Shown: positions 1,612 to 43,013, counted from the stretch's first letter. The stretch is DNA of 45,591 nt from an uncultured Candidatus Saccharibacteria bacterium (GCA_964505815.1 CAZDKA010000002.1:1-45591); one strand, 5' to 3'. Program-made: numbers and translations. Notes: a model not told the origin generated them from the letters alone.

Positions 1612-2754
1612 TCAAAACTTCCAGCCGATCTTTTCCATCACTGCCTTGAAATCCGGATCAAGGCCAGCCAGCAGTATAACTTCGCGATAATCAATGAAGC
1701 GGATACGAGCCGGGTCTTTTTTCAAGCTTTGCTGGTATTCGTTTAAAAGTTTGAACTTAAAAGGATATTTGCTTCCTTCCGGTTCGGCAAGTTTTGCCAT
1801 CGGCTTCAGAAGTTCGCGAATGTCGCTCTGCCTGCTTTTTCCGGCAATGGAGGCGAGCACAGCCGCGTACTGAAACCGCACCCGCAAGTACGAATCAAAA
1901 ACAGCAAAGTCCGCAAGATCCTCGTCTTTATGAAGAGCAAGAGTCTGTTTGAAAAGTTCTTCAGCGCTTTTGGCATCATACTCGTTTAGTATTGCCAGGG
2001 CGCCGGCGACAGAAGCCTGATAAAAATAAGGTCTTATGGCACGCGACTTTTTCGGAATAAAAGTTGTTGCCTCGGCTATGGCCACATCCCGAACAATAAG
2101 CGCTCCGCCTTCGGCAAGCTTTTCTTTTGCTGCGCCGAGATAACGAGTCCTTTGTTCCTGAGACAGATTTTGATTGCGAATGAGTTGCTGGACATACCAG
2201 TAAGCGTTCCATAAATACGCAACGCTATTCGGATTAATTTCAATTGAGCGTTCATAAAGAAGTCTTATTGCTGTAGGAATGTCGCCGTTGGCATTCTTAA
2301 GAATATTCTGGTACGGATCCCCGGTAAAAATGACGTTTCTTGCAAAATCCTCATCATTAGTTGCGGTAATAAGGTCAACCAATCCGTTCATAAGCTGCGA
2401 CCGGAGATGAGTAGAAAAAGAAGTGTCTTCTATCATTGCTTTAAGATCATTCACCGCTTCAATTTTCTGCTCCGGAGAGCCCTTAAAATACTTGTCAAAA
2501 GCAATAATCGCTCTTATGCGCGCTTGTTTTAGCGTATCAGATTCTTCAGCATCTTCTAACGCGCCCTCAAGCGCGGTAATTGCTTTTTCAAACTCCCCGG
2601 ACTTATGGAGAACGCCGGCTTCCCCCGCTTTTTTCTCAAGTCGTTTTACTCGCTGGGCCTTCTGAAATCTATCAACAAAAATAAAACCAGCCAGTATTAA
2701 AATGGCTGCTATTGCTGCAATAAGAATTTTCTTAAAAGAAAAAAACTGGTTCAT
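1612..2754 (-). CDS. Membrane-anchored all-helical (TPR-like) protein, tandem paralog 2
   Basis: Start taken at ATG 2754 (MNQFFSFKKILIAAIAAILILAGFIFV, a TM helix). The track start at 2796 is a TTG inside the upstream gene. Similar to 2759..3958: DEDFARNVIFTGDPYQ vs DDDFSHAVIFRGQPYE, AYWYVQQL vs AYWYGEQL; shared GWKF motif, C-terminal in this protein and four residues from the end of the other. Confidence 0.6.
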   Translation of the reverse strand: MNQFFSFKKILIAAIAAILILAGFIFVDRFQKAQRVKRLEKKAGEAGVLHKSGEFEKAITALEGALEDAEESDTLKQARIRAIIAFDKYFKGSPEQKIEAVNDLKAMIEDTSFSTHLRSQLMNGLVDLITATNDEDFARNVIFTGDPYQNILKNANGDIPTAIRLLYERSIEINPNSVAYLWNAYWYVQQLIRNQNLSQEQRTRYLGAAKEKLAEGGALIVRDVAIAEATTFIPKKSRAIRPYFYQASVAGALAILNEYDAKSAEELFKQTLALHKDEDLADFAVFDSYLRVRFQYAAVLASIAGKSRQSDIRELLKPMAKLAEPEGSKYPFKFKLLNEYQQSLKKDPARIRFIDYREVILLAGLDPDFKAVMEKIGWKF

Positions 2755-2758
2755 CGTT

Positions 2759-3958
2759 TTAGCGCGCCGCGACAAACTTCCAGCCAAATTTTTCAAGCGT
2801 TATTTTAAATTCCGGCACAAATTCGGCGACCTTCAAAAGTTCGTGATAATCGGGGAAGTGGACGTGGTCCTCCACGCCGGCGAGACGCACGCTTCTTGTA
2901 TATTCATTCATGATCAGCTGGGTAAAAAGAGGCGTTTTCCCGTTAATCGCCCTGAGGGCATCGCCCATAACTGAGGCAAGCTCGCGGATATCCTCCCTCT
3001 TCTCTGCTCCGTAACCGGCTACCAGGAACCCGACATAGTCATAGCGCACTTCATAGACCATATCGCGCAAAAAGAGGTCATCTGCTTTCTCTTTGCTTTC
3101 TTTGTCAATATCGTTAAGAATGCTCCTAAAAAGCGTATCAACGTGCGCAAGAGACGTATCCTCAGAGTTTCGCAAAGCCGCAAAGCCGACAACCATCGCG
3201 TGGATAATTTTTAGCGCCGCGATACGGGTAGGAGAATCGGCTTTTTGAATCAACGTAATATCGCGATCCATGAGCTCCTCGCCTTTGCGAAGATGCGTTA
3301 TGAGTTGATTCGCGTAGGCTGTCTTCACTTCCGGAGAAAGCTCTTTTTCCAGAAGTTTGCTTCGCGTCAGTTGCTCGCCGTACCAGTAGGCAATGCGAAA
3401 ATGGGCATTGGCAGTCGGGGCAAGAGCAAGACTCCATTCGTAGAGCTTGCGCGCGGCAATGTGAGTATCATGGCCTCCTGCTTCCGCCAAGAACGTCTCA
3501 TAAGGCTGGCCCCTGAAAATAACCGCGTGAGAAAAGTCATCATCATGGGTGGCGTTATACATATCAAGCATCGAAGTCAAAATCATGGCCCGCGTCAAAC
3601 CGGGAATTGATTCATCGGCCACCATTTCCTTCATCATCGCTACCCCTTTTTTCTTTTTCTCCGGCTGGCAGGTAATAAAGTTGTCCCAGGCAAGCGCGGC
3701 CTGGGCATGAATGCGCTCCTGCGGCGAGCTCACATAAATGAGGGCCTGTTCCCAAAGGGGAATACTCTTGTCGGTGTCAGCCAGACGATGATATTTCATG
3801 GCTTCATCGTGAAGGCTTTCATGCCGGGCCTTTTTGTTGGCATCAGTGTAATGCATATATATTTTCTCTCCGCCCCATACAGCCAGACCCAAAAGCAAAA
3901 GAGCTGTGAGTCCTCTTTCGGCAACGGAAAAAAAATTTTCTCGCGAAATGTTTAACAT
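2759..3958 (-). CDS. Membrane-anchored all-helical (TPR-like) protein, tandem paralog 1
   Basis: ATG at 3958 (MLNISRENFFSVAERGLTALLLLGLAVWGG); the track start at 3976 is TTG. The ATG overlaps the last codons of the upstream 75-aa ORF. Paralogous to 1612..2754. Confidence 0.6.
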   Translation of the reverse strand: MLNISRENFFSVAERGLTALLLLGLAVWGGEKIYMHYTDANKKARHESLHDEAMKYHRLADTDKSIPLWEQALIYVSSPQERIHAQAALAWDNFITCQPEKKKKGVAMMKEMVADESIPGLTRAMILTSMLDMYNATHDDDFSHAVIFRGQPYETFLAEAGGHDTHIAARKLYEWSLALAPTANAHFRIAYWYGEQLTRSKLLEKELSPEVKTAYANQLITHLRKGEELMDRDITLIQKADSPTRIAALKIIHAMVVGFAALRNSEDTSLAHVDTLFRSILNDIDKESKEKADDLFLRDMVYEVRYDYVGFLVAGYGAEKREDIRELASVMGDALRAINGKTPLFTQLIMNEYTRSVRLAGVEDHVHFPDYHELLKVAEFVPEFKITLEKFGWKFVAAR

Positions 3959-4179
3959 GAACAACACTCGCAGCAATCCCCAACAACAACAGGATCTCCA
4001 AGACCGCCTGGACCATCGGCTCTTGCTTCCGGAAAAATACAGGCCAAAGGATTTACTCCGGCCGATGGTTTATCCTTGTTTTCTTTGTGCAACACGAATC
4101 CGACAGTAAATACCGCCAAAGTTAAGACCAAAAGTCGTAAAACTCTCCCCAGGCCGATTTTTTTAGTAGATGTATCCAT
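3952..4179 (-). CDS. 75-aa Cys-rich small protein, candidate modified-peptide precursor
   Basis: ATG at 4179. N-terminal hydrophobic helix LGRVLRLLVLTLAVFTVGFVL, a Gly/Pro/Asp linker, and C-terminus GDCCECCSC. The stop region overlaps the next gene's ATG (TCATGTTAA). No homology call is possible by eye. Confidence 0.45.
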   Translation of the reverse strand: MDTSTKKIGLGRVLRLLVLTLAVFTVGFVLHKENKDKPSAGVNPLACIFPEARADGPGGLGDPVVVGDCCECCSC

Positions 4180-4284
4180 ATGCCACCATTATATATTGAC
4201 TATCTTTATTACTACAAACGTCACTTATCCACAGAGATTACGCGGTATGGCTTGGTCCAAGTTTTCTACTTTTAACGCCCGCCA

Positions 4285-4324
4285 ATGTACACAAGATTAG
4301 ACGATAGTTCAATGTTGTGTACAT
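4285..4324. promoter_or_regulatory. 10-bp inverted repeat in the AT-rich gap between ycaO and the Cys-rich ORF
   Basis: ATGTACACAA (4285-4294) and TTGTGTACAT (4315-4324) with a 20-nt spacer. On the minus strand a TATAAT (4188-4193) lies only 8 nt before the ATG at 4179. Confidence 0.4.
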
Positions 4325-4341
4325 ATAATAAAAATAAAAAG

Positions 4342-5943
4342 TTAAGGAAATGGGTGCGGCAGGGGATTAAATGCGGCACGGCTTCTATGCCCTAGTTTTT
4401 CGGGCACATGCTTGAGCCGCGCGGCCCCGAGAGGGACGGCGTGTTCTTTCATATAAAGAGGAATAAGCGGCGGTATGACGACCCGCACCGAATGGTATCC
4501 CAACGTATCTAAAACCGTATGCGTTGCCTCATAAAAATAAACTGCGTATTGGGGGCCAAGTTTTTCTATGGCGCCTTGCAGCCACGCCAACTCTTCCTTT
4601 TTGGACGAAAAGGTTCTGGCCGGAATATCATTCCACAGCTGCGCTGCGCCCTCCAAGAAAAAAGAGAAGGACCGAAGCGTTTCCGGATTAGCCCACAGCG
4701 CAAGGCGCCCCTCTTGTCCTATTTCTTCGCGAAAAGGCGAGTAATTCTCCGACAGGCGGTAAGTTTTTAATTCGGGAGTTCTGGTATACTGCGTCCGCAG
4801 CGACTGCCGAATCCCCAGCGATTCGCTTAAAGCCCTGACAACCGCTATTTCTGGCTTTGCGTCGCACCCGCCGCCAATGGTCAAGGAGGGCCCGCGCCCG
4901 GAACGATCAATTATGATCGCGGCAAAAGTCGGCACCGGGATATCTGTTGTAATATTAAGAATGGTCGGCTCAAGATGATAGCGGCGGCAGAGCGCAAGAA
5001 GCGTGGCAGCATCGGGGTGATTGAGCGCGGAGATGTCAACACGGGGCGGGGCAATGGCGTTCAGCCAGTGAATCAGGAAAGCGTCGCGCTGGATTAACTC
5101 GTATATGCCTAATATGACTGCTTCCTCAAGCGAAAAATGCCCGGCAGCGCCGTTGGTAATGGGCTGCTGCAGGAACGGTTCGTGATACTCAGCATGATGA
5201 CAGTAGTTCCAAAAAACGCATTGCGCCGGTAAAAGTACCGGAATGCTGCTCCCCAGTTTTCGCCCCGGCGTCCAAAAAAATTCATCGGCGTCATTGAAAC
5301 GGCGTTCTGGAAATATTTGTTTTTGCTCCTCTGAAAATTCTGCCAAATTCGCCGGATCAAGATACAAAACGCCTTTTTTTTTAAGGGAACGCAGGGAGCT
5401 TCTAACAAGTTTTTCCTTCCGATAGAGCGAAAGAAAATGTCGTTCCAGCAGCTCGCCGATGGCTTTGGAAAGCGCTTCTTCAAAATGAAGCGATGTGCCG
5501 CGGTTATAGAGCTGCTGCGGGTCGTGGCCGTCGGTCAGTGTTTTATCGAATTGGGATTGGAGATGGAGATAAAATAATTTCGGCTCATCGTTGAATGGCG
5601 GCTCAAATACGGCGCGCGGAGAGGTAAGAATTTTTTGTTCAAAGAGATAATTCGGTATGGCCTGCCATTGCGGCGGAACCGGATAAGAAGCATCACTAGG
5701 GATAAAAGAATCGTTGCTGGTACCCAGTTCTGCAATTTTTTGCTGTAACTGCAAAGACCAGCGGCCATGCGGGGACTGCGGCGAGCGATAACGCCCTGCC
5801 GCCTTTTGCGCCTCGCTGAAGATTTCGCTGGTTCTTTTTACACCAACTCCGCTCTGCGGAAGAAACGACTGGCGGTCGTTAAAAACTTCACGCGCTAATG
5901 GCTCGGACGTACTTTCCGTAGAGATATTTTTGTCTGAGTTCAT
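4342..5943 (-). CDS. ycaO: YcaO-domain protein (ATP-dependent peptide backbone-modifying enzyme family)
   Basis: Motifs read by eye: GTSLHFEEALSKAIGELLERH, PITNGAAGHFSLEEAVILGIYELIQRDAF, GGGCDAKPEIAVVRALSES. About 130-aa N-terminal extension. Starts 5 nt after the stop of 5949..7868. Confidence 0.8.
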   Translation of the reverse strand: MNSDKNISTESTSEPLAREVFNDRQSFLPQSGVGVKRTSEIFSEAQKAAGRYRSPQSPHGRWSLQLQQKIAELGTSNDSFIPSDASYPVPPQWQAIPNYLFEQKILTSPRAVFEPPFNDEPKLFYLHLQSQFDKTLTDGHDPQQLYNRGTSLHFEEALSKAIGELLERHFLSLYRKEKLVRSSLRSLKKKGVLYLDPANLAEFSEEQKQIFPERRFNDADEFFWTPGRKLGSSIPVLLPAQCVFWNYCHHAEYHEPFLQQPITNGAAGHFSLEEAVILGIYELIQRDAFLIHWLNAIAPPRVDISALNHPDAATLLALCRRYHLEPTILNITTDIPVPTFAAIIIDRSGRGPSLTIGGGCDAKPEIAVVRALSESLGIRQSLRTQYTRTPELKTYRLSENYSPFREEIGQEGRLALWANPETLRSFSFFLEGAAQLWNDIPARTFSSKKEELAWLQGAIEKLGPQYAVYFYEATHTVLDTLGYHSVRVVIPPLIPLYMKEHAVPLGAARLKHVPEKLGHRSRAAFNPLPHPFP

Positions 5944-5948
5944 AAAGG

Positions 5949-7868
5949 CTAATAGCTGTTACTATGAATACGGAGGCGCGATACGCCAAGCAACACGTGC
6001 CCTGCCGCGTCAATCCATGCTTCGACGGTTAAATAGTCGTGGCGAAAGCCGCCGATAACTTTCGGCCGAATCTCTTCGCGAATAAAAAAGGTGTTTTCTT
6101 GGTCGTATTGCATGGACAAAAGCCAGGCTAAACACATATCAATCGCGTCTTTATTTTTTCCTGGATCCAACGCCAATACCTCAAAAACTTTTCCGGTTCC
6201 GCGAGTGTAAGGGACGCCGCCGATCGTAGATTCGGGGAAGGCACCGTCTGAAAGCTGGTGGCCTTTGAGCCAATCGTTAACTCTCTGATAGAAAATCTCG
6301 TGGCTGCCGTGAAAACTATGCGCTAGCTCCGCCCAAACCGCAAGATTCTCGGCCCGGCCGCTTTCCAGCGATGCTGCAAATTTTTCTTTCAAAATCCGGG
6401 TTAGATTTTCAAACGGTGTTGAGAATCGATGATCGGCTCTTATCATCTTAAAGAAACTCGCGATTTGAGCAAAGGTAAGCGGTTCGAAGTTCAAGGCGGC
6501 GAGTCGGCTCAAAATTCTGTCTGCTGCGGCTCCCGCCTCGTTCGGCTTGCCCAATGCAAGCGATAACTGCCCGAAATAGGCTAATGTCAACTCCGAATTG
6601 GAAATTTGGAATTGAGAATTAGTAATTAAATAACTCTTGAGGTATTCAAAACTTTTTTCTGCGGCAATAGAATATCTTTGCTCTCCTGCGGCTTTACCGA
6701 ATTCGGCAAGCGCGAGAGCAGTAAAGGCTAGGCGCGGCCAGTCAATTTGTGTTTGGCGGCCGGTTAGCGGGTCTATAATCGGCGGAAGGTTGCCATCCGG
6801 CTCCTGGATCCGGCAAAGCCAATCGGCGGCCATTCGTAAACGCTGGATTATGAATTCTGAATTAAGAATTACGGATTCCGGGGCAACTACCGGACCGAAA
6901 AGAGACAAATGTTTTTTGCCATCTTCGGATTCTATGAAATCATCAACTTCAAAAATAGAAATATCGGCATCTTTATATGCGGCGCGGCTTAGTCCTGCTT
7001 TACTCTCTGCCAGATCCCCCAAAAAATCTTCAAGATTTTGAAACCGGCGCGCATTATGCGCCTCGGGCAGAAACCATCCTTTTCGTCCTTCTCCGTTTTT
7101 TTCCACGCCGCTTTTCATTCCAACATTCTTAAGAATGTTGGAATGACCGCGGGTTGTTTTTTGCTGTAAAAGATATCCTTTTTCCGAATAAATCGCGTTC
7201 CGCCCAAACTCAACCGGCAACAACGGCAGACGGAGGTCGTGCATAATAGTAATTTCTATCTGCGTATCCGCCAGCTCTTCCGGCGAAAGCGGCTTGAATC
7301 TAGGGTCGCGACTGGCGTTTACTGCGGCATCGGCAATACCCTCTCCCAAATGTCGGCGCTCCACTATTGAAGAACCGCGCAGATGCCCCTTGGTCCACAA
7401 AGCAACATCAAGGGTGATCGACAACTGGAAACGTTCAGAAAGAGTACTAAAGTATTCGCGGGTGAAACGCTCGCCGGTAACAAAAAATTTTTCAAGCGCG
7501 TGTCGGGCAATTTTCAACGCGATTATTCTTTCTTCTTCGTCAAACCCCCAACGAAGAGGCCTCACTTGCACTAAACGGTCTGTTCTTTCAAGAATCTCGA
7601 TCTCCGGAGATGAAAAAATTTTTATCCACGGTGCATCAAGTTTCTCGTTCGGCTTGGCGTTGCAGATAATAAACATTGGTGTTCGATCACTTGACGGCAT
7701 CCTCATTTTTTTTGGCCTGTCACCGAATCGGAGCGGGAAATCAAAATAAAAGCAGCCGTGCGTGCCCGGAAGATCAACAAAAATAATATCGCGCTCGTTC
7801 GCGACCCCGCTTAACCACTCTAAAACCGCATGAAGTTGTTGGGAGAAAGGTCTCCACCATCCAAACAT
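5949..7868 (-). CDS. AMMECR1-like domain fused to a prenyltransferase/terpene-cyclase-like alpha-alpha toroid domain
   Basis: Residues ~105-300 (WTKGHLRGSSI, NASRDPRFKPLSPEEL, IEITIMHDL, GWFLPEAH, FLGDLAESKAGL) follow the AMMECR1 pattern (LRGCIG, DPRF, LLPQV, KAGL), with Ser replacing the Cys. Residues ~330-639 carry three WLxxxQxxDG-type repeats (WLCRIQEPDGNL, WLKGHQLSDGAF, WLLSMQYDQ). Confidence 0.65.
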   Translation of the reverse strand: MFGWWRPFSQQLHAVLEWLSGVANERDIIFVDLPGTHGCFYFDFPLRFGDRPKKMRMPSSDRTPMFIICNAKPNEKLDAPWIKIFSSPEIEILERTDRLVQVRPLRWGFDEEERIIALKIARHALEKFFVTGERFTREYFSTLSERFQLSITLDVALWTKGHLRGSSIVERRHLGEGIADAAVNASRDPRFKPLSPEELADTQIEITIMHDLRLPLLPVEFGRNAIYSEKGYLLQQKTTRGHSNILKNVGMKSGVEKNGEGRKGWFLPEAHNARRFQNLEDFLGDLAESKAGLSRAAYKDADISIFEVDDFIESEDGKKHLSLFGPVVAPESVILNSEFIIQRLRMAADWLCRIQEPDGNLPPIIDPLTGRQTQIDWPRLAFTALALAEFGKAAGEQRYSIAAEKSFEYLKSYLITNSQFQISNSELTLAYFGQLSLALGKPNEAGAAADRILSRLAALNFEPLTFAQIASFFKMIRADHRFSTPFENLTRILKEKFAASLESGRAENLAVWAELAHSFHGSHEIFYQRVNDWLKGHQLSDGAFPESTIGGVPYTRGTGKVFEVLALDPGKNKDAIDMCLAWLLSMQYDQENTFFIREEIRPKVIGGFRHDYLTVEAWIDAAGHVLLGVSRLRIHSNSY

Positions 7869-7989
7869 GCACCACTTATCGTAGGTTACTCGTCCTTCCT
7901 TGACAATGGCTATTGAATAGCTATCTCTCTGGCCGTTTAGTCCAAAGTATGCTAGATTATATTCGCTCTTTGAAAAAATGGAGGTGTAT

Positions 7990-8469
7990 ATGGCCTACAG
8001 CGACAAAGTGATTGATCACTATAACAATCCACGCAACGTCGGGTCGTTTCCGAAAGATGAGAAAGGTGTGGGCACCGGGCTTGTCGGCGCGCCGGAGTGC
8101 GGAGATGTGATGAAACTGCAAATTAAAGTAATGCTCGAGCATGAGTGCGCAAAGTGTCACCACGTCTGGTATCCAGAACGCCAGGAGCCGATCTGCCCGA
8201 TGTGCCACTGGGCAAACATCAACATCAAACAAGTTATTCAGGACGCGAAATTCAAAACATTTGGCTGCGGCTCGGCCATTGCTTCCTCGTCGCTCGCCAC
8301 CGAATGGCTAAAAGGCAAAACTATTGAGGAGGCGGCAAAAATCAAAAACACCGACATCGTAAATGAGTTAAAGTTGCCGCCGGTAAAAATCCACTGCTCG
8401 GTTTTGGCAGAGGACGCGATTAAGGCCGCGATTAAAGATTATCAAACCAAACAGGGAGGAGAGCAATGA
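7990..8469 (+). CDS. iscU: Fe-S cluster scaffold IscU/NifU-like, with a ~30-aa Cys4 insertion
   Basis: GGAGGTG then ATG at 7990. MAYSDKVIDHYNNPRNVGSF, GAPECGDVMKLQIKV, FKTFGCGSAIASSS, PPVKIHCSVLAEDAIKAAI are near-canonical IscU. An extra segment LEHECAKCHHVWYPERQEPICPMCHWANINIK follows KLQIKV. Confidence 0.85.
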   Translation: MAYSDKVIDHYNNPRNVGSFPKDEKGVGTGLVGAPECGDVMKLQIKVMLEHECAKCHHVWYPERQEPICPMCHWANINIKQVIQDAKFKTFGCGSAIASSSLATEWLKGKTIEEAAKIKNTDIVNELKLPPVKIHCSVLAEDAIKAAIKDYQTKQGGEQ

Positions 8470-8810
8470 CTATTGAACTCACCGAAGCAGCGCGGCAAAA
8501 AATTAAAGAAATTATTGAGGCCGATTGGCACGATAAACTGGTCTATCTCAAAATGGCAGTAAAAGGCGGAGGGTGCTCGGGCCTTTCTTATGCGCTTGAG
8601 TTAAGGGATGCCGAAAAAGACCCGATCGACGAAAAGCACGACAAAGAGTTTGAGATTGGTGGCATCCGTGTCGTTATTGACAAGAAAAGCTATCTCTATC
8701 TTGCGGGCACAACTCTTGACTATGTAACTCAGGGGCTGGCGGGAGGATTCACTTTTGTAAACCCCAACGCCAAATCATCCTGCGGCTGCGGCACTTCATT
8801 TTCGGTATAG
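8466..8810 (+). CDS. iscA: A-type Fe-S carrier (IscA/SufA/ErpA family)
   Basis: ATGA overlap with iscU. KGGGCSGLSY and C-terminal SSCGCGTSF match the A-type carrier Cys pattern. Confidence 0.85.
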   Translation: MTIELTEAARQKIKEIIEADWHDKLVYLKMAVKGGGCSGLSYALELRDAEKDPIDEKHDKEFEIGGIRVVIDKKSYLYLAGTTLDYVTQGLAGGFTFVNPNAKSSCGCGTSFSV

Positions 8811-8836
8811 AAGCAACGTGAGGGAAAGGGGGCAGT

Positions 8837-9172
8837 ATGAACTTTACGCTAACGCCTGATGCTGTGGCCTATATCAATCAAGCCCAAAAACAAATGGGGA
8901 GGGTCGAACCGTATCTCCGGATCGGCATCAAGGGACAGGGCTGCTGCAGCCCGATGTACGCGCTTCATTTCACTGACACAAAGCAGGATAATGACGGGGT
9001 CTTTCCGTATGAAGGATTTTCGGTAGTGATTGATAACAAACTCGAGAAGGAACTAAATAATGCTGAGATGACTACGGTGAAAATCGGCATTGAGACGCGT
9101 CTCAAAATCAACAACCCAAATTTTGCCAGGTGCTCGTGTCATTCCCAGCCATCTAGTCAGGAGGAAAAATAA
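8837..9172 (+). CDS. Divergent HesB/IscA-like protein
   Basis: GGGGGCAG before the ATG. IKGQGCCSPMYAL and a C-terminal CSC, same length class as the A-type carrier upstream. Confidence 0.55.
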   Translation: MNFTLTPDAVAYINQAQKQMGRVEPYLRIGIKGQGCCSPMYALHFTDTKQDNDGVFPYEGFSVVIDNKLEKELNNAEMTTVKIGIETRLKINNPNFARCSCHSQPSSQEEK

Positions 9173-9173
9173 A

Positions 9174-9446
9174 ATGAGCTGGTTCATGGAGCGTCCGATT
9201 CTCTCGGCGATTGCGCTCATCCTGCTCATCGCCATTCTCTCAAATACGCCCCTGGCCATTATCTGGCTTGCAACCGAAAAAAGTAAAGCCGCCGACATGA
9301 CCATCTGGCATTATGTCGGCGCTGGCGGCGCAATGTTTATTCTCATTCCGGTAGGAATTGTCATAGTACCTTTTGCGGCTCTTTACGTTGCGGGGTACTC
9401 CCTTTTCGGTCCCGCCGAAGAAGAGAGTAATATCATTAAAAGCTAA
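9174..9446 (+). CDS. Small two-helix membrane protein
   Basis: ATG at 9174, right after the stop of the previous gene and internal to the 9090..9446 ORF. Hydrophobic segments ILSAIALILLIAIL and GAMFILIPVGIVIVPFAALYVAGY. Confidence 0.5.
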   Translation: MSWFMERPILSAIALILLIAILSNTPLAIIWLATEKSKAADMTIWHYVGAGGAMFILIPVGIVIVPFAALYVAGYSLFGPAEEESNIIKS

Positions 9447-9530
9447 ACCAGGAGAATCAGTGCTCCTCGCCCATTTCAGACGGCTACGGCCAGTCACTCT
9501 CGGCCTAGCCACAACATTTCTGTTCAACCA

Positions 9531-9555
9531 AAAACGGCTATCCATGCCGTTTTTT
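9531..9555 (+). terminator. Rho-independent terminator of the isc-like operon
   Basis: AAAACGGC-tatccat-GCCGTTTTTT. Confidence 0.6.
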
Positions 9556-9560
9556 CCTAC

Positions 9561-9602
9561 AAAATACGTTTTAATATGCTATAGCATATTAAAACGTATT
9601 TT
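9561..9602. repeat. Palindrome family C, copy 1 (42-bp perfect palindrome)
   Basis: AAAATACGTTTTAATATGCTA|TAGCATATTAAAACGTATTTT checked base by base. Shares the AAAATACGTTTTA arm with 21527-21570. Confidence 0.9.
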
Positions 9603-9623
9603 AATCTCTTTTAAAAAAAGACT

Positions 9624-10181
9624 TCACTCTTCTCGTTTTTCTATGAATTTTGCCGTTGCCCGCCGCAGTAACCACGCTGTCCCAATCCCGACAAGTGCGC
9701 CGCCAAGGATATCGCTCGGCCAGTGAACGCCAGCGACAACCCTGCTCATCCCGATGAATAATGCCGCGGCAAAGAATAAAATGCTTGTTTTCGGATAATA
9801 AAAAGCGACTGCTGAGGCAACCGCGAAGGCAAGCGAGGCGTGCCCCGACGGAAAAGAGCCGCCGCCATTATGACTCACAAGCTGCCTGACGCCATCCAAA
9901 ACCTCAAACGGCCGCGGCCGGTTATAAAAAAATCGTATGATTTCTGTAATGACGTAGCGCGCGGTGAATGCCGAGATAAAAGCAAAAATAAACAAATCGG
10001 TATTCTGTTTTCTGTACCGACGAAATCGTAAAAATACCGTTCCGGCAATAAATATCGCCACTGCAGTCATCACCAGGTACCAAAGATATATCGCCCGAAA
10101 GACAATCGCCCAATCAAAAAATGGCGAAACTCCGGCCCAGGAGTTGAGCCAACGAAAAATTGCGACATCTATGCTACTCAT
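9624..10181 (-). CDS. PAP2-family lipid phosphatase (undecaprenyl-diphosphatase/PgpB-like)
   Basis: PAP2 motifs YNRPRP, PSGH, SRVVAGVHWPSD. ATG at 10181 overlaps the folD stop (GATGAGTAG). Confidence 0.8.
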   Translation of the reverse strand: MSSIDVAIFRWLNSWAGVSPFFDWAIVFRAIYLWYLVMTAVAIFIAGTVFLRFRRYRKQNTDLFIFAFISAFTARYVITEIIRFFYNRPRPFEVLDGVRQLVSHNGGGSFPSGHASLAFAVASAVAFYYPKTSILFFAAALFIGMSRVVAGVHWPSDILGGALVGIGTAWLLRRATAKFIEKREE

Positions 10182-30713: not shown

Positions 30714-31415
30714 TCAAACAAAAGCAAAATGTTTTCTTATGTCATCGTCATGCACAATATGATTCGTCTCAACTAATCGAACATACTCGCCAACGCCGTA
30801 AAGAGAGATAATAAACTCTAGTTCCTCATTGCAGGGATACGGAAACACGAAAACGCTCCTCTGAAGCGAATAAAAACCTATTGCTTTCAACTTTTCTCGA
30901 AATCCTTCACGCGCTGATTTGTGTGTATCAGGAATATCGAATACGACTATGCGCCATGTGCCGTCCCACAAATCCGGTCTCCGGATTATAAATGTGTTGT
31001 ATGCTCTTTGGATGGCTCGTTTTTCTCCTAACTTCGTAAGGCTAATTTCATATTCATTTTCATTTATCTTCGAAGCGGAAACAAAATTTTGTTTCTTAAG
31101 AACGGCGAGCTCGCGTTGAAAATACCCACTATGCATATATGTTCGATATATTCTTCTGCCGCGCATACGTCCGAAGGCGCTAAATATATTGGGGGCGGCA
31201 GCAGCAACAGTAAGCGCTCCAGCAACTAGAAGCAAGGCGAGAAGCCCCTTACCAAATGCAATGCCTCCCGCTTTTGCCGCACGAATCATATCTTCTCGTT
31301 TCGTTGCCTTTTCGGCTTCTGCCCATTCTTGCCGCATGTGCCTTATAAAAAACTCCCTGTGATCTAAAAGGCGTGGAATAATTTTCTTCTCGTATTTTCT
31401 CTTCGTACCAGTCAT
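30714..31415 (-). CDS. Membrane-anchored PaaX-like protein (winged helix plus Cas2-like central domain), paralog A
   Basis: TM segment GLLALLLVAGALTVAAAAPNIFSAFGR. Wing-like YEISLTKLGEKRA. WDGTWRIVVFDIPDTHKSAREGFREKLKAIGFYSLQRSVFVFPYP follows the PaaX/Cas2-like pattern. Paralog of 42235..42963. Confidence 0.6.
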   Translation of the reverse strand: MTGTKRKYEKKIIPRLLDHREFFIRHMRQEWAEAEKATKREDMIRAAKAGGIAFGKGLLALLLVAGALTVAAAAPNIFSAFGRMRGRRIYRTYMHSGYFQRELAVLKKQNFVSASKINENEYEISLTKLGEKRAIQRAYNTFIIRRPDLWDGTWRIVVFDIPDTHKSAREGFREKLKAIGFYSLQRSVFVFPYPCNEELEFIISLYGVGEYVRLVETNHIVHDDDIRKHFAFV

Positions 31416-38008: not shown

Positions 38009-38593
38009 TTAAGCGAGATGCTCGGCAAAAAGACGCGATGTAACCTCATCAAGCCGTCTTACCTCGGAGGCCTCCCCGACGGTTGCAAATTCGGCGCATG
38101 GCAGGAGAAGGCATCTTGATGTTGGCTCGGAAAAAAGACCGAGTTCGTCAAGGAAGCGAGCGCGGAACCAAACGAGCCCTGCTTTCTGCTCCTCGGAGCC
38201 AAGTGTCGGGCCATTAAGCAGGTCCAGCATTTCTAAAGCTACAGCAAAAAAATTTCCGTTTTCTTCACGGCGATCCTCAAAAAGCGCGCTGCCTACGGCC
38301 CCAAATATTTCAGAAGCGGCCCTTAGTCGGAACGGATCGCTCTTGATTGCCGGGAAAAAATTAAGAAGCTCCGCGCCGACCAGACGGTAATTATTCCTTC
38401 CGGCAACAAATGAAAGCCGCGAAAGGGAAAGCGGTTCAAGATGACCCTTGAGTTTTGCTTCAACTTTGCGCGCTCCTTGGGCAATGAGCCGAATATTCAC
38501 AAATCGGTCGGTCAGCGCAGTAATCAAAAGATCGGCCTCGCCGAGTTCTTCTTTCCTGAGAATGATTGCGTCAGTTACGTGCATAGTGTTCAC
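38009..38593 (-). CDS. recO: DNA repair protein RecO (short form)
   Basis: AIILRKEELGEADLLITALT ... EPLSLSRLSFVAGRNNYRLVGAE matches the RecO OB-fold N-terminus. ATGA-type overlap with the ileS stop. Confidence 0.7.
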   Translation of the reverse strand: MNTMHVTDAIILRKEELGEADLLITALTDRFVNIRLIAQGARKVEAKLKGHLEPLSLSRLSFVAGRNNYRLVGAELLNFFPAIKSDPFRLRAASEIFGAVGSALFEDRREENGNFFAVALEMLDLLNGPTLGSEEQKAGLVWFRARFLDELGLFSEPTSRCLLLPCAEFATVGEASEVRRLDEVTSRLFAEHLA

Positions 38594-41500
38594 GCTCTAT
38601 CAATCCCTACCCAAAGCTCGTGGCCGTCAATAGAGAGCTCGCGCTCAACCGCAAACACTTTCTTGCCGCCGAGCGTAAAAATTTTGGCGCCGGTTTCTTT
38701 TTCAACAAATTTCTTAGAGCGCTCCAGCATCTTAAGCATCTCCGCGTCTCCCGCGGCCTGTAGTTTTATAGGGTGCTCTGGCCGAAGGCCCAGGTCTTTT
38801 CTCATCTCCTGGACATTCCGCACAAACTCTCTAAGCCATCCCTCTTCACGGAGTTCCGGGGTAATTTCGGTATCAAGCTCAACCTCGCCGGCTATTGTTT
38901 CGTCTCTTACGATTTCTTTCACGTTCACCTCGTCTCTAACTACATCCAACAACTCCTTGCTCAACGTTACACTCTTCACCTTAGCCGTCCTTAAGGGTTG
39001 ACGAACTTTTATTCCGTGCTTTGCGCGCTCGGCAAGGATGAGTGCTACAAGGGCGCGGGCTTCGTGCATCTCGTAGAATTCAAACTCTACCGCTTTGACT
39101 TGCGGCCACGGCCGGAGGTGCACACTATTTTCTTTCAGTCCAAATTTCGGTTTTAGTTCCTGATAAATAATCTCAGCAAGAAAAGGAGTAAAGGGCGCTA
39201 CAAGCTCCGCGAGACGAAGAAGAGCCCAACCGGTTATCGCCGCCGCTTCATCCTTGTCGGCCTTTGATGCTGGTTTCTGGAAGCGGCGGCGTGACCTACG
39301 CAAATACCAATTCGAGAAATCGTCTAGAAGGAACCCTTCCAAATGCCGGGCGGCACCAACAACGTCGTAGGCATCAAGAAGCTTTCCAACAAGATTGCTG
39401 TAATATTCAAGTCGCCCGACCAGCCAACGGTCAAGAACAGTCGTTGCTCTGTGCCGCTGAATTTTCTTTCTTGGCACCTTGTCCACGTATGTATCAAAAA
39501 GCACGAAGCTGTTCCAAAGTGTTGCCAGCGGCCCGCGCAGTTTATTCAAAAGGTCTTTCTCATCAAAACGCTTTGGCTCGCCCGGGGGATTCGCGGTGAA
39601 GAAATACCAGCGGATGGTGTCAGCGCCGTATTTCTTCATCATCTCCCACGGATCCACCACGTTGCCTTTGGACTTAGACATCTTCTGACCGTTTTTATCA
39701 AGAACATGCCCCAGGGAAATTACATGGCGAAAGGGCGCCCCTTTTTCAAGAAGAGTCGCGACGGCCAAAAGGGTATAAAACCAGCCGCGCGTCTGATCAA
39801 CGCCTTCGGCGATAAAGTCGGCCGGATACAATAATTTTTCTTTTTGATTTTTGATTTTTGATTTTTGATTTTGAGCCCAAGCGAATGGGTAATGAGCTTG
39901 GGCGAACGGCATCGCCCCCGAGTCAAACCAAACGTCTGCCACATCTTTAACCCTCTCCATCTTGCCGCCGCAGGCCTGCCCGCCGGAAAGGCCTGACTTA
40001 CAGATAAGCCGCACCTCGTCAATAAATGGCCGGTGCAGATTCACTTCGCCCGAGTTGTCGCGAGGCAAATTTAAAAATTTGATGGGCTGAACTCCGGCAA
40101 GGCCTATGTAATCCTCTTTTCTGCCGCGTAATTTTATGATGCCGTCGCGGTCGAGGCCTCGGGATGCGCCGTCCAAAATCCAAATCGGATACTCATGGCT
40201 TATGATAAGAATTTTTTTGTTGCGGTATTTCCGGTCAATGTCCTGCATGAAACCCATCAGGCGGGCTCTCAAGTCAGAAAGCGACTCTCCTTCCGGCGGG
40301 GCTTTCGCAAAATACTCCTCGGCCGAGGAATAAAAGCCGTTATACTCTTTTGTCGGCCGGCCGTTGAATATGCCTACATTAATTTCCCGAACCCTTGTGT
40401 CTTTCAAAACCTCTTTAACGCCCAAAACCTCGGCGACAATTCGTGCGGCCTCTGTGGTACGGAGAACATCGGAGTGAATGATGATATCAATATTTTCTTT
40501 TTTTAATTTTTCCGCGGCCAATCTGATCTGCTCTTTGCCTAGATCGGTCATGTGGTATTTTGAGTTCGAGTCCGCGACAATACCCAAGAGCTGGGTTTCT
40601 GACTCGCCGTGGCGCAGAGCAAAATAAGTGTTGCCGGAACTTTTTGCTCTTCCGGCAAGTTCCTCAAGCGAGCTCAACGCTTCAACTGCTTTACACTTAG
40701 TGCATTCCCATATGGGCAAAGGCGTTCCCCAGTAGCGCTCTCTGGAAAAAGCCCAGTCGCGAAGTTCCGAGAGAAATTCGCCGAAGCGTCCGTCTTTTAT
40801 ATGCTCCGGAACCCAGTCGATGGTCTGGTTATTTTTAATCAGTTCCTGTTTAATTTTCGTCATCCGCACCCACCATGAATTTCTCGCGTAATAAAGAAGC
40901 GGCGTTCCGCATCGCCAGCAATGGGGATATTCGTGTTCATACGGCAAAATAGCAAAGAGCAGTTTTCTTTTTTTTAGGTCTTCCACAATGACCTTGTCGG
41001 CCTCCTTAACGAACTTTCCCTCGCCTATAACTCCTTTTTTCATCCTGCCGTCAGGATCAACCGTCTCCAGTATCGGATAGTCGCCCGAGTATTCTTTTTT
41101 CATCGCCGCCATATCCTCTTCCCCGTATGCCGGAGCAAGATGCACGAAACCCGACCCTTCTTCGGTAGAAACAAAATCCGCTCCGTAAACGCGGTAAGGG
41201 GGCGCTACTGTTCCGTAGTCGGAAGCCGGGGCATAGAGCGGCTCGTATGAGAGGCCGACTAGCGCCTTGCCGGAAACTTTCTCGGTAATTTCCGGAGAGG
41301 CCCCTTTGGCATCATAGGGCGGAACATTTGCCGACCATACAAACTCGTTGCCGATTTTAAACTTGGTGTATTCCGTTGTCGGGTTAACGGCAACGGCGAC
41401 GTTGGCCGGAAGAGTCCAAGGCGTCGTGGTCCAGACCAGCAGCGATTCGTTTTTTCTGTCTTTGATTTTTAAGCGGACGAAAACTGAATCCTCCTTTACT

Positions 41501-42102
41501 TTTATATACGCTCCGGGCTGGCCAAGTTCGTGCGAAGAAAGGCCGGTCTGGCACCTGGGGCACCACGGAATGATTTTAAAATCCTTATAAAGGAGACCTT
41601 TCTTCCAAATTTCTTTAATAATCCACCAGAGAGTTTCGATATAACTCGTCTCATAGGTAATATATGGATGCTCTAGATCAAGCCAAAAACCGATTCGCTT
41701 GGTCAAGCGCTCCCACTCTTCTTTAAAACGCCATACCGACTCGCGGCACTTCTCGTTGAACTCAGCAATACCGTAATGTTCAATGTCTTTTTTTGTCTTT
41801 AGGCCGAGTTCCTTTTCAACTTGAAGTTCCACCGGCAGACCATGCGTGTCCCAGCCGGCTTTTCTCAAAACCTGAAAACCGCGCATGGTCTTGTAGCGCG
41901 GAATTATGTCCTTGAAAGCTCGCGACTCAACATGGTGAATGCCAGGCGCGGCGTTAGCCGTCGGCGGCCCCTCATAAAAAATAAACGGCTTGCCCCGCTT
42001 GGTTTTTTGCAGGCTCTTCTCGAAAATCCTCTCCCGCTCCCAGAATTCAAGAATTTTTTGCTCTCTTCCAGGGAGATTGAATACCTGTTTCTTTTGCATC
42101 AT
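38590..42102 (-). CDS. ileS: Isoleucyl-tRNA synthetase (1170 aa) carrying an inserted domain
   Basis: PPTANAAPGIHHV (HIGH), WTTTPWTLPAN, CWRCGTP, KMSKSKGNVV, DQTRGWFYT. Confidence 0.95.
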   Translation of the reverse strand: MMQKKQVFNLPGREQKILEFWERERIFEKSLQKTKRGKPFIFYEGPPTANAAPGIHHVESRAFKDIIPRYKTMRGFQVLRKAGWDTHGLPVELQVEKELGLKTKKDIEHYGIAEFNEKCRESVWRFKEEWERLTKRIGFWLDLEHPYITYETSYIETLWWIIKEIWKKGLLYKDFKIIPWCPRCQTGLSSHELGQPGAYIKVKEDSVFVRLKIKDRKNESLLVWTTTPWTLPANVAVAVNPTTEYTKFKIGNEFVWSANVPPYDAKGASPEITEKVSGKALVGLSYEPLYAPASDYGTVAPPYRVYGADFVSTEEGSGFVHLAPAYGEEDMAAMKKEYSGDYPILETVDPDGRMKKGVIGEGKFVKEADKVIVEDLKKRKLLFAILPYEHEYPHCWRCGTPLLYYARNSWWVRMTKIKQELIKNNQTIDWVPEHIKDGRFGEFLSELRDWAFSRERYWGTPLPIWECTKCKAVEALSSLEELAGRAKSSGNTYFALRHGESETQLLGIVADSNSKYHMTDLGKEQIRLAAEKLKKENIDIIIHSDVLRTTEAARIVAEVLGVKEVLKDTRVREINVGIFNGRPTKEYNGFYSSAEEYFAKAPPEGESLSDLRARLMGFMQDIDRKYRNKKILIISHEYPIWILDGASRGLDRDGIIKLRGRKEDYIGLAGVQPIKFLNLPRDNSGEVNLHRPFIDEVRLICKSGLSGGQACGGKMERVKDVADVWFDSGAMPFAQAHYPFAWAQNQKSKIKNQKEKLLYPADFIAEGVDQTRGWFYTLLAVATLLEKGAPFRHVISLGHVLDKNGQKMSKSKGNVVDPWEMMKKYGADTIRWYFFTANPPGEPKRFDEKDLLNKLRGPLATLWNSFVLFDTYVDKVPRKKIQRHRATTVLDRWLVGRLEYYSNLVGKLLDAYDVVGAARHLEGFLLDDFSNWYLRRSRRRFQKPASKADKDEAAAITGWALLRLAELVAPFTPFLAEIIYQELKPKFGLKENSVHLRPWPQVKAVEFEFYEMHEARALVALILAERAKHGIKVRQPLRTAKVKSVTLSKELLDVVRDEVNVKEIVRDETIAGEVELDTEITPELREEGWLREFVRNVQEMRKDLGLRPEHPIKLQAAGDAEMLKMLERSKKFVEKETGAKIFTLGGKKVFAVERELSIDGHELWVGIDRA
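40063..40638 (-). other. Histidine-phosphatase (phosphoglycerate-mutase-like) domain inserted inside ileS
   Basis: Residues ~489-680: YFALRHGESETQ (RHG motif), HSDVLRTTEAA, ILIISHEYPI (second His). They lie between WECTKCKAVE and NLHRPFIDEV. Confidence 0.7.
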
Positions 42103-42234: not shown

Positions 42235-42963
42235 TCACTTCTTTAGGCCAAAAAATTCTTTGAGATCATCGTCGAAGTTGATGACTCTCGTCTCTACGTA
42301 GCGAAGATGGCCGCCCAGGTCGTACAGCCTCCTCAAAAACTCAATTTCCTCCCTACACGGATACGGAAAAACGAAGGTGCTTTTTTGAAGAGGGCAAAAG
42401 CCCATATTCTTTAGACATCGCCGCAGGCCATCCCTAGCCCATTTATCCCCCTCCGGGACATCAAAAAACACCAACCGCCAGATGCCGTCCCATTTTTCTG
42501 GGCGCAGAACTTTTAAGCCCCAAAACGCCCGTTTCGCTAACTGCTCTTGACCTAACTTGGTAAGCCGAACTTCCCTTGTTTCGTCTTCGGTCTTTACGAC
42601 GCTCACATAACCTCGCCGTTTGAAATAAGTTATTTTATTTTCAAAATCTTTCCGATGAAAATAGCGCCTGTGCTTGCCGAGCCGGCCAAACGCCGAAAAG
42701 ATGTTTGGCGCAACCGCACCCACTATCAAAATCCCGCACACCGCAGCCATACCTAAAATAGTAAGCCCCAAAACCGTTCCGGTTTCTTTCAGCGTTTCGC
42801 GCCGTCTGAGTTTACGCGCGTCTCTTTCAACCAATCTTTCCGCCTCCTCCCATTCTCTTTTAAGATGTTCAACGATAAAACGGCGGTTTTCCCGATTCTT
42901 AACTGCCCGTTTCACGAGTTTACTCTCATATCCTCTTTTAAAAATCTTCTTTCCTGTCCCCAT
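42235..42963 (-). CDS. Membrane-anchored PaaX-like protein (winged helix plus Cas2-like central domain), paralog B
   Basis: Start at MGTGKKIFKRGYE (ATG 42963). The 16 upstream codons of the track ORF are the palindrome itself. APNIFSAFGR and WDGIWRLVFFDVPEGDKWARDGLRRCLKNMGFCPLQKSTFVFPYP. Confidence 0.6.
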   Translation of the reverse strand: MGTGKKIFKRGYESKLVKRAVKNRENRRFIVEHLKREWEEAERLVERDARKLRRRETLKETGTVLGLTILGMAAVCGILIVGAVAPNIFSAFGRLGKHRRYFHRKDFENKITYFKRRGYVSVVKTEDETREVRLTKLGQEQLAKRAFWGLKVLRPEKWDGIWRLVFFDVPEGDKWARDGLRRCLKNMGFCPLQKSTFVFPYPCREEIEFLRRLYDLGGHLRYVETRVINFDDDLKEFFGLKK

Positions 42964-42968
42964 AGTTA

Positions 42969-42994
42969 AAAACTTACGCGATCGCGTAAGTTTT
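42969..42994. repeat. Palindrome family B, copy 3 (26-bp perfect core)
   Basis: AAAACTTACGCGA|TCGCGTAAGTTTT, ending 5 nt from the ATG at 42963. Confidence 0.9.
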
Positions 42995-43013
42995 AACAAG
43001 AGTGAAAACATAG

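Follow-up and report, generated by a model that had tools for sequence, protein, structure and literature searches.

The 45,591-nucleotide contig CAZDKA010000002.1 of an uncultured Candidatus Saccharibacteria bacterium (hereafter the window, meaning the whole analysed stretch of DNA) contains, at positions 1612-7868, five minus-strand genes that most likely constitute a single operon, belonging to the linear azol(in)e peptide (LAP, or TOMM) type. They encode a YcaO enzyme, a 75-residue peptide that is probably its substrate, a 639-residue protein in which an AMMECR1 domain is joined to an (alpha/alpha)6 toroid, and two TPR-like membrane proteins. On balance, we favour a reading in which the operon makes a secreted, thiazoline-containing LAP/TOMM peptide, and in which the YcaO enzyme is paired with the AMMECR1-toroid protein instead of the usual helper. 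More tentatively, and with clearly less confidence, we propose that the AMMECR1-toroid protein represents a previously unrecognised class of obligate YcaO partner, which would replace the E1-like or Ocin-ThiF-like 'C' protein, bind the precursor and activate the cyclodehydratase.

Listing of the open reading frames (ORFs) and direct reading gave the five genes the same coordinates as a preliminary description made from the sequence alone. The AMMECR1-toroid gene (5949-7868) ends 5 nucleotides (nt; AAAGG) before the YcaO gene (4342-5943, 533 residues), and the Pfam matches PF01871 and PF02624 and an AlphaFold (AF2) model agree with the fusion protein and YcaO assignments made there. Upstream of the precursor gene lies an intergenic gap of 162 nt (4180-4341), which is indeed AT-rich (34.6% GC as against 48.7% for the window). 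The precursor ORF itself (3952-4179) ends in GDCCECCSC and overlaps, as described, the start of the first membrane protein gene (copy 1, 2759-3958, 399 residues from its ATG), whose start codon at 3958-3956 sits within TCATGTTAA, the end of the peptide ORF. Copy 2 (1612-2754, 380 residues from its ATG) follows in tandem.

For comparison, 111 related loci were gathered and annotated by blastp, tblastn and hidden Markov models (HMMs). Patterns for genome scans were derived from an alignment of 18 sequences, an alignment of 47 being too diverse for this use. Homologues of both large proteins were found in Patescibacteria, mainly in metagenome-assembled genomes (MAGs) of the Parcubacteria group (Sungbacteria, Liptonbacteria, Moranbacteria, Portnoybacteria). 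The arrangement lies far beyond chance, since dozens of metagenomic or MAG loci, independent of one another, show the same gene order, and the synteny that the preliminary description had left to be checked is conserved in relatives.

The YcaO enzyme, its probable substrate and its missing helpers

The 533-residue enzyme matches PF02624 (E 3e-57) and exceeds the curated NCBI cut-off of TIGR03604, the model for SagD family thiazole/oxazole-forming maturases (228.2 bits, cut-off 219.25), whereas it stays below that of TIGR00702 for the E. coli-type YcaO (50.3 bits, cut-off 75.65). Its second-best NCBIfam match was TIGR03266 (McrA-glycine thioamidation), with E 2e-21 and 76.6 bits against a cut-off of 365. 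When the PDB was searched with a profile of 47 homologues, TruD (2e-42), MusD and LynD were found at E ~1e-42, and the archaeal thioamide enzymes of M. jannaschii (9e-33) and M. kandleri (2.5e-14), McbD (2.6e-7) and E. coli YcaO (2.5e-5) ranked lower. A Foldseek search with the YcaO model ranked the structures in broadly the same way, with MusD at the top and MusD, LynD and TruD at E 1e-24 to 2e-20. The enzyme thus lies outside the E. coli housekeeping type, a grouping that the preliminary description had named as speaking against its proposal.

The residues invariant among the 47 homologues, which we take to match the published ATP/Mg motifs, are G163-E164 and E167-R168 (GExxER), E255, E282, R286-D287 (ExxxRD) and P529-H530-P531. 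The protein ends in PHPFP, and a C-terminal PxPxP motif is a mark of azoline-forming YcaOs. As judged from its sequence, the enzyme is a SagD-family cyclodehydratase of the azoline-forming type. Its alignment to the YcaO domain of TruD begins at about residue 83 and thus leaves no room for an E1-like domain or a RiPP recognition element (RRE) of its own, where RiPP denotes a peptide made by the ribosome and modified after translation. Such a domain hidden in the N-terminus was rejected on this ground; residues 1-34 were modelled with low confidence.

The 75-residue ORF is, on sequence criteria, probably the precursor, in line with the earlier suggestion that a Cys-rich ORF next to YcaO is a RiPP substrate. 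Its leader (residues 1-55, 4015-4179) consists of a basic N-terminus, a transmembrane (TM)-like helix (residues ~13-30), a linker and an FPEARAD junction, and its core (residues 56-75 plus stop codon, 3952-4014) reads GPGGLGDPVVVGDCCECCSC. Five Cys and one Ser fall among the last eight of the 20 core residues, one of the densest Cys clusters of the set, exceeded only by the core of L008. No NCBIfam or Pfam model matches the window precursor, and NCBIfam has none for its family. An HMM of the leader recovered 41 ORFs beside the enzymes, with 30 distinct cores; the window peptide scores E 4e-14 against it, being itself one of the HMM seeds. A composition screen added about ten more family members and found a precursor-type ORF in 26 of 31 distinct low-GC loci with an AMMECR1-fusion and a YcaO gene (for three of the five loci that it missed, other evidence points to one), so that the small ORF, too, is conserved in relatives. 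Altogether the family was seen in about 40 related loci with differing other neighbours.

All members are built alike: after a basic N-terminus come a helix of ~20 strongly hydrophobic residues, a linker of similar length (~20 residues), a conserved junction and the core. The leaders are conserved in the family alignment while the cores are hypervariable. The junction follows the pattern A-x-A-D-(A/V/T/G)-P, with ARADGP in the window. Over the 30 distinct cores Gly makes up 27%, Ser 19%, Cys 8%, Asp plus Glu 16% and Lys plus Arg 0.5%, and the window core fits this composition; some cores have no Cys and many Ser. The closest relative found for the window leader is the peptide of L107, which reads FPHEARADALGGG. 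In a second leader subtype, revealed by the composition screen, an AQA(Q)CW or AQAVCC junction replaces AxAD(A/V)P, and A-x-A is the feature common to both subtypes. This second subtype occurs in L008 (9851-10111), L051 (6417-6668), L054 (6176-6493), L058 (5195-5413), L061 (11982-12257), L062 (7783-8052), L072 (11384-11638) and L105 (3614-3904). In four precursors inspected by eye, with no computed count (window, L001, L005, L011), basic residues stand mainly before the helix, which suggests an N-in orientation.

A longer variant was observed in L022, the nearest neighbour of the window on the YcaO tree. Its ORF at 5484-6293 begins like a precursor, with a TM helix, QVRADIP and a Gly/Ser/Cys core ending in SSSCC, and runs on into an extra C-terminal domain of 165 residues without a family match. 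A Hint/intein domain, guessed by eye, found no confirmation in Pfam or in a PDB sequence search. The ORF is followed by a gene for a membrane-anchored rhodanese (6297-6773), and L087 also has a rhodanese (3823-4308).

The preliminary description had further listed helpers of YcaO that are absent from the window. For the E1/ThiF-like docking protein this was corroborated for the window and all related loci: an HMM built from the E1-like halves of classical fused C-D proteins, which recovered its positive controls at 2.5e-46 and 6.5e-16, found nothing in 8229 ORFs (best E 3.6; remote homologues could escape it), and none of the five operon proteins has an E1-like NCBIfam or Pfam match. The FMN dehydrogenase is likewise absent, with no SagB/nitroreductase homologue in the whole window by blastp (E <= 1e-4) or among the proteins scanned with Pfam, which comprise those of the cluster, two neighbours and 20 of the 32 ORFs of at least 150 residues listed beyond position 12000. 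It is not, however, foreign to the system. In relatives, the nitroreductase adjoining YcaO belongs to the SagB family (TIGR03605, 130-148 bits, cut-off 78), and SagB is present in 12 of the 19 AMMECR1-fusion/YcaO loci with enough flanking sequence; beyond these, it is missing from the window and from L001. Loci without SagB occur at scattered places in the YcaO tree, a distribution that suggests repeated loss or relocation of SagB. As to the exporter and leader protease, the operon contains no ABC exporter and no protease, and no exporter was seen among the Pfam-scanned proteins, so that their reported absence stands for the operon and, for the exporter, also for the scanned part of the window. 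The operon encodes no rhodanese, and no TfuA was found among the Pfam-scanned proteins, although no search aimed at TfuA was made.

The AMMECR1-toroid protein and its linkage to YcaO

The AF2 model of the 639-residue protein (pLDDT 91.7) divides into a beta-rich domain at the N-terminus, an AMMECR1 fold and, at the C-terminus, an (alpha/alpha)6 toroid. The N-terminal domain (residues ~1-105, 7554-7868) is composed of six strands and one helix, with pLDDT mostly above 84. It has no assigned family and is conserved across the family alignment (A3).

The AMMECR1 domain (residues ~110-325, 6894-7541) was recognised by PF01871 at residues 118-309 (E 3e-14, 53.3 bits, cut-off 25) and by Foldseek matches to the archaeal AMMECR1 structures 1zq7, 1vaj and 1wsc (E 6e-11 to 2e-9). 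AMMECR1 is conserved from archaea to humans and is named after a human contiguous-gene-deletion syndrome; we know of no biochemical function for it. The domain retains the motifs RDPRFKP (RDPRFxP) and GWFLPE (GxxLPE), and in place of the canonical LRGCIG the window has LRGSS and the family consensus LRGS, with the signature Cys replaced. It scores 59 bits against TIGR04335 (AmmeMemoRadiSam protein A, cut-off 99), and neither a Memo-like nor a radical SAM gene was found in the operon by ORF listing and Pfam.

The toroid (residues ~335-639, with helices modelled at 337-638; 5949-6866 including the stop codon) resembles, weakly and generically by Foldseek, class II terpene cyclases (8pak, E 1e-7), hydrolases of families GH88/GH105 and, distantly, LanCL1 (E 4e-3). 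Its invariant residues are Q355, R379, K560, E563, W582, R609, H610, W618, D620 and H624, with no Cys among them. A LanC-like toroid was rejected, given the lack of an invariant Cys or of a Cys/Cys/His zinc-site pattern, the lack of a Pfam LANC_like match and the distance of the LanCL1 fold match (TM-score ~0.26-0.37). Nor was a terpene cyclase or glycoside hydrolase function assigned, these matches being generic for the fold (TM-score ~0.3-0.6, 10-15% identity).

Counted with the AMMECR1-toroid gene as starting point, and with at least 1.2 kb of downstream sequence required, 46 of 50 distinct loci have YcaO as the next gene downstream, in the same orientation. The spacing is typically -14 to +58 nt, with a 4-nt overlap in L009, L110 and L111. 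A profile search of 1.84 billion representative proteins retrieved 265 AMMECR1-toroid members (50%-identity clusters) at E <= 1e-30, four of which are 1039-1131 residues long and carry AMMECR1 at the N-terminal and YcaO at the C-terminal end by Pfam. Three of these four fusions lack the N-terminal beta-rich domain. Since the four align end to end (33-37% identity to each other), and one is present in identical form in two independent assemblies, with a same-family precursor after it, the sequences indicate that the fusions are genuine and ancient and represent four independent lineages. In further support of a partnership, the divergence of the AMMECR1-toroid protein follows that of YcaO (Mantel r 0.74-0.76) about as closely as SagB divergence does (0.75-0.82), with a contribution of common species history to all of these figures. 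A limit to the partner reading is set by the YcaO tree, on which the enzymes associated with AMMECR1 make up a single large subclade, whereas SagB, alone or together with a propeller protein, is what the basal clades use.

The pair also occurs outside the candidate phyla radiation (CPR), in more than 50 clusters from high-GC (~0.69) bacteria, one of them labelled Polyangiaceae and one on a 7.0-Mb contig. In L110 (9001-12416) and L111 (9001-12503) it is a bare two-gene module with no SagB or TM/TPR gene nearby. ORF calls in the high-GC loci were too noisy for precursor scanning. A convergent small ORF stands just downstream of the pair in L110 (12430-12699, minus strand), L111 (12513-12944, minus strand) and L090 (pair 6001-9365, ORF 9405-9809, minus strand); it combines a lipoprotein-like signal (LLxTAGVASCGG) with repeated (V/I)(V/I)EA...D(A/G)G(S/T)D units and may represent a different substrate family.

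Some of the related loci have other gene contents. In L087 (1990-5766) and L093 (1248-6744) the AMMECR1-toroid gene is directly followed by a precursor and then by a TM/TPR-like gene. A downstream ORF of 487 residues in L093 resembles by eye the PaaK/F390-synthetase-like ORF of L048, and Pfam found no family for it; AMP-binding or PaaK/F390-like ORFs occur in L007 and L048, and ORFs of L005 and L017 group with that of L007 by blastp. A protein of ~550 residues, in which a PRTase-like domain is fused to a PQQ/BamB-like beta-propeller, is often encoded in YcaO/SagB loci without an AMMECR1-toroid gene (L025 3572-5218; L031 3895-5553; L016 4194-5960; L018 172-1845; L023 4316-6046; L029 4580-6241, minus strand). 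It may be an alternative accessory protein. L015 and L068 have both proteins, and L057, L075 and L087 carry the PRTase-propeller gene beside the AMMECR1-toroid gene. The neighbours of P0186 (JGI sample 3300075153), a fusion of 1131 residues, are a radical SAM/SPASM gene, a second short YcaO, a PQQ-like propeller protein and a TPR protein.

Proposed biosynthesis, alternative readings and surroundings

From these observations we infer the following course of events. The precursor would be made with a signal-anchor-like hydrophobic leader helix, a linker ending in A-R-A-D and the core described above. In the cytoplasm, YcaO would activate backbone amides with ATP and convert Cys to thiazolines, and possibly Ser to oxazoline, at -18 Da each. 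The preliminary description had given -20 Da as the azoline shift, which is the value for an azole. With no SagB in the operon, the rings are predicted to stay azolines and not to become azoles. YcaO and the co-translated AMMECR1-toroid protein are envisaged as a complex in which the latter would stand in for the classical 'C' protein and bind or present the precursor, activate YcaO, or both. Guided by its hydrophobic leader, the modified peptide would next reach the membrane or the Sec machinery, and cleavage after A-x-A, possibly by signal peptidase I, would free an anionic, azoline-rich peptide outside the cell; with such Sec-type export and cleavage, neither a dedicated exporter nor a leader protease would be needed, which would fit their absence. 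The two TPR-like membrane paralogues may serve as a scaffold, export aid or immunity factor. The product might bind metal, or might act as an antibiotic in the manner of other LAPs.

Several points weigh against this reading. The Mantel correlations given above can arise from shared species phylogeny alone. When YcaO was used as query, about half of the CPR YcaO loci had no AMMECR1-toroid gene, some of them carrying the PRTase-propeller protein, so that YcaOs of the broad family can apparently work without it, and an accessory or tailoring role fits this as well as a partner role does. L087 and L093 have no YcaO within 4-6 kb of the AMMECR1-toroid gene and precursor. As for the azolines, the contig spans only 45.6 kb and a SagB gene could be elsewhere in the genome, and as for the cleavage, an A-x-A some 20 residues past the hydrophobic helix is far for signal peptidase I.

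The strongest alternative, which we consider unlikely, accepts a LAP-type RiPP cluster but lets YcaO act alone, in the way of stand-alone YcaOs, the AMMECR1-toroid protein being a separate tailoring enzyme or chaperone and not a cyclodehydratase subunit; this protein might, for example, carry out an additional modification of the core, or keep the hydrophobic leader sheltered in its central cavity. Loci without the AMMECR1-toroid gene that keep SagB and a precursor (L005, L007, L010, L016-L018, L020, L023, L025, L027-L031) are in line with this, as are the PRTase-propeller protein that takes a similar position in some loci, the pairing with a precursor but no YcaO in L087 and L093, and the invariant polar toroid residues K560, E563, R609, H610, D620 and H624, which could form an active site. 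On the other hand, single-chain fusions occur in four lineages with the same domain order as in E1-like-YcaO fusions, the two genes are adjacent in 46 of 50 loci and often have overlapping stop and start codons, the high-GC genomes contain them as a bare two-gene module, and the YcaO enzyme has no recognisable leader-binding domain.

We regard it as quite improbable that YcaO installs thioamides, or makes some other non-azoline change (amidine formation, ATP-dependent cleavage), on the Cys-rich peptide. In favour of it, a dehydrogenase is missing from the operon, TIGR03266 is the second-best NCBIfam match, the top Foldseek match MusD is an ATP-dependent peptidase YcaO, and membrane-anchored rhodaneses, possible sulfur donors, occur in two related loci, one of which is the window's nearest neighbour on the tree. 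Yet the TIGR03266 score is far below its cut-off whereas the SagD model passes, the PxPxP C-terminus does not vary, relatives usually have SagB as a neighbour, the window's operon has neither a rhodanese nor, within the scope of the Pfam scans, a TfuA, and the cores abound in Cys and Ser, the nucleophiles needed for heterocyclisation.

Hardly credible, finally, is a non-RiPP role, in which the pair would have a different substrate, for instance a protein, as is the case for the E. coli YcaO and McrA-type enzymes, and the 75-residue ORF would be an unrelated membrane-anchored, Cys-rich metal-binding peptide, perhaps tied to the neighbouring NifU/IscA Fe-S genes: the pair without a nearby precursor of this family in the high-GC genomes and the L038 group, the NifU-like and HesB/IscA-like genes divergently upstream (7978-9172) and a CCxCCxC motif that we take to resemble the metallothionein type fit such a role, but the precursor family accompanies the enzymes in loci whose other neighbours differ, conserved leaders carry hypervariable cores, some Ser-rich without Cys, SagB peptide dehydrogenases co-occur, and the Fe-S genes are not conserved neighbours elsewhere.

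Returning to the favoured reading of a LAP operon with a YcaO/AMMECR1-toroid pair, the two membrane proteins had been described as tandem TM-anchored helical paralogues, and pairwise comparison shows them to be true paralogues (31% identity, E 3e-45), each with one N-terminal hydrophobic helix. Homologues of copy 1 were found downstream of the precursor in many loci. A profile of copy 1 (alignment A4) matched consensus TPR proteins of the PDB only at positions 45-112, and copy 2 gave weak TPR matches in the Pfam scan; no Pfam or NCBIfam family was found for either copy.

Several candidate regulatory elements accompany the operon. A promoter-like site (7878-7906, minus strand; TTGTCA, 17-nt spacer, TACGAT, 9 of 12 consensus matches) lies upstream of the operon, in the 109 nt that separate it from the divergent NifU-like gene, and constitutes weak evidence, the number of sites in the region being that expected for shuffled sequence. 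The AT-rich gap at 4180-4341 could possibly hold an internal promoter: on direct reading a TATAAT-like box and GGTGG precede the precursor ATG, and a promoter scan called none there. At 1562-1598, between the operon and the convergent upstream gene, direct reading of 1544-1611 revealed a G+C-rich hairpin (CCCCTCGCG, 8-nt loop, CGCGAGGGG) flanked by T and A runs. It is a probable terminator, and was not listed by a pattern scan for such elements.

The plus-strand NifU_N/IscU-like protein upstream (7978-8469) has its Pfam match split by a Cys-rich, zinc-ribbon-like insert of ~35 residues (CAKCHH...CPMCHW) and is followed at 8466-9172 (plus strand) by two small ORFs that are HesB/IscA-like by eye reading only. 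Where scanned, the rest of the contig encodes housekeeping functions (aminoacyl-tRNA synthetases, GlmS, Sua5 and similar), and two of its ORFs were taken as FolD and GlyA by eye only. In a 1170-residue isoleucyl-tRNA-synthetase-like protein (38590-42102, minus strand), a histidine phosphatase domain (His_Phos_1, residues 496-651) falls between matches to class I tRNA-synthetase catalytic-domain models. Two proteins with PaaX_M/Cas2-like central domains (30714-31415 and 42235-43011, both minus strand) stand amid the housekeeping genes.

Comparison with known systems

LAP clusters are already known in CPR bacteria. Sharrar et al. 2020 (mBio, PMC7298704) predicted by genome mining 110 such clusters, spread over 93 CPR genomes (51 of them Parcubacteria), with a nitroreductase beside YcaO in 89 of the 110; their example cluster has a peptidase and an 84-residue precursor rich in Ser and Cys, and the main text makes no mention of AMMECR1 or of a transmembrane leader. 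The window shares with those clusters the lineage, the YcaO enzyme and the small Ser/Cys-rich precursor, and differs from them by the absence of a nitroreductase and the presence of the AMMECR1-toroid protein and two TPR-like membrane proteins. The preliminary description had recognised no described class in the partner set. The cluster does belong to a known one, the SagD-family LAP/TOMM type, and what holds of that claim is the non-canonical partner, which appears to be the new part. The AMMECR1-toroid partner, the signal-anchor-type leader with its A-x-A junction and the SagB-less composition were not found described in an incomplete literature check that did not extend to AMMECR1, and the partner may therefore already be described.

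Substrate recognition by YcaO is a central question for RiPP enzymology. To our knowledge only a few types of partner are known (E1-like, Ocin-ThiF-like, TfuA), and an abundant, genetically linked and sometimes fused one would add to the list. Should the proposed partnership hold true, it would give AMMECR1 its first biochemical role, as a module that handles peptide or protein substrates; it would define a LAP subclass with Sec-type or membrane-anchored leaders, and a partner family spanning CPR and high-GC bacteria, of which at least one is labelled Polyangiaceae (Myxococcota). The operon thus offers this domain of unknown function a testable role with a defined enzyme partner and peptide substrate, and could sharpen the rules of genome mining for CPR and for high-GC, apparently myxobacterial, genomes with the pair. 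The widespread membrane-targeted, anionic and probably heterocyclised peptides are candidate mediators of host-cell interaction or metal handling in CPR.

The AMMECR1 fold itself, with its RDPRFxP and GxxLPE motifs, is shared with the AmmeMemoRadiSam system (TIGR04335, TIGR04336, TIGR04337). The window protein differs in scoring below the TIGR04335 cut-off, in reading LRGSS, in having an extra toroid and N-terminal beta domain, and in lacking a Memo-like or radical SAM partner. By analogy, we would see AMMECR1 in both settings as genetically tied to an actual or apparent protein or peptide modifier.

A parallel for the proposed export is provided by the bufferins, Cys-containing RiPP precursors with Sec-type signal peptides that are modified by MNIO enzymes in the cytoplasm before export and need no dedicated transporter. 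The likeness lies in the N-terminal export signal on a Cys-containing precursor and in the lack of such a transporter; the modifying enzyme is an MNIO/DUF692 protein there and YcaO here, and the A-x-A of the window lies ~20 residues beyond the hydrophobic helix.

With the SagBCD and McbBCD systems of streptolysin S and microcin B17, the window shares a SagD-family, ATP-dependent YcaO with a PxPxP tail, a precursor beside the enzymes and a Gly/Ser/Cys-rich core much like that of microcin B17, and most relatives have SagB as well. In contrast to these systems, the position of the 'C' protein is occupied by the AMMECR1-toroid protein with no E1-like protein present, SagB is missing from the window, the leader has a TM-like helix and an A-x-A junction where theirs is soluble, the cores are strongly anionic, and both an ABC exporter and a leader protease are missing from the operon.

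Among solved structures, the nearest YcaO domains are those of the cyanobactin heterocyclases TruD, LynD and PatD, which are fused E1-like-YcaO proteins ('TOMM precursor leader peptide-binding protein'). The partner of the window is built from unrelated folds, AMMECR1 and an (alpha/alpha)6 toroid, with no E1-like domain or RRE. The architecture is nevertheless analogous, with a partner domain N-terminal to YcaO, either as a separate gene or fused, and the four AMMECR1-toroid-YcaO fusions mirror the E1-like ones.

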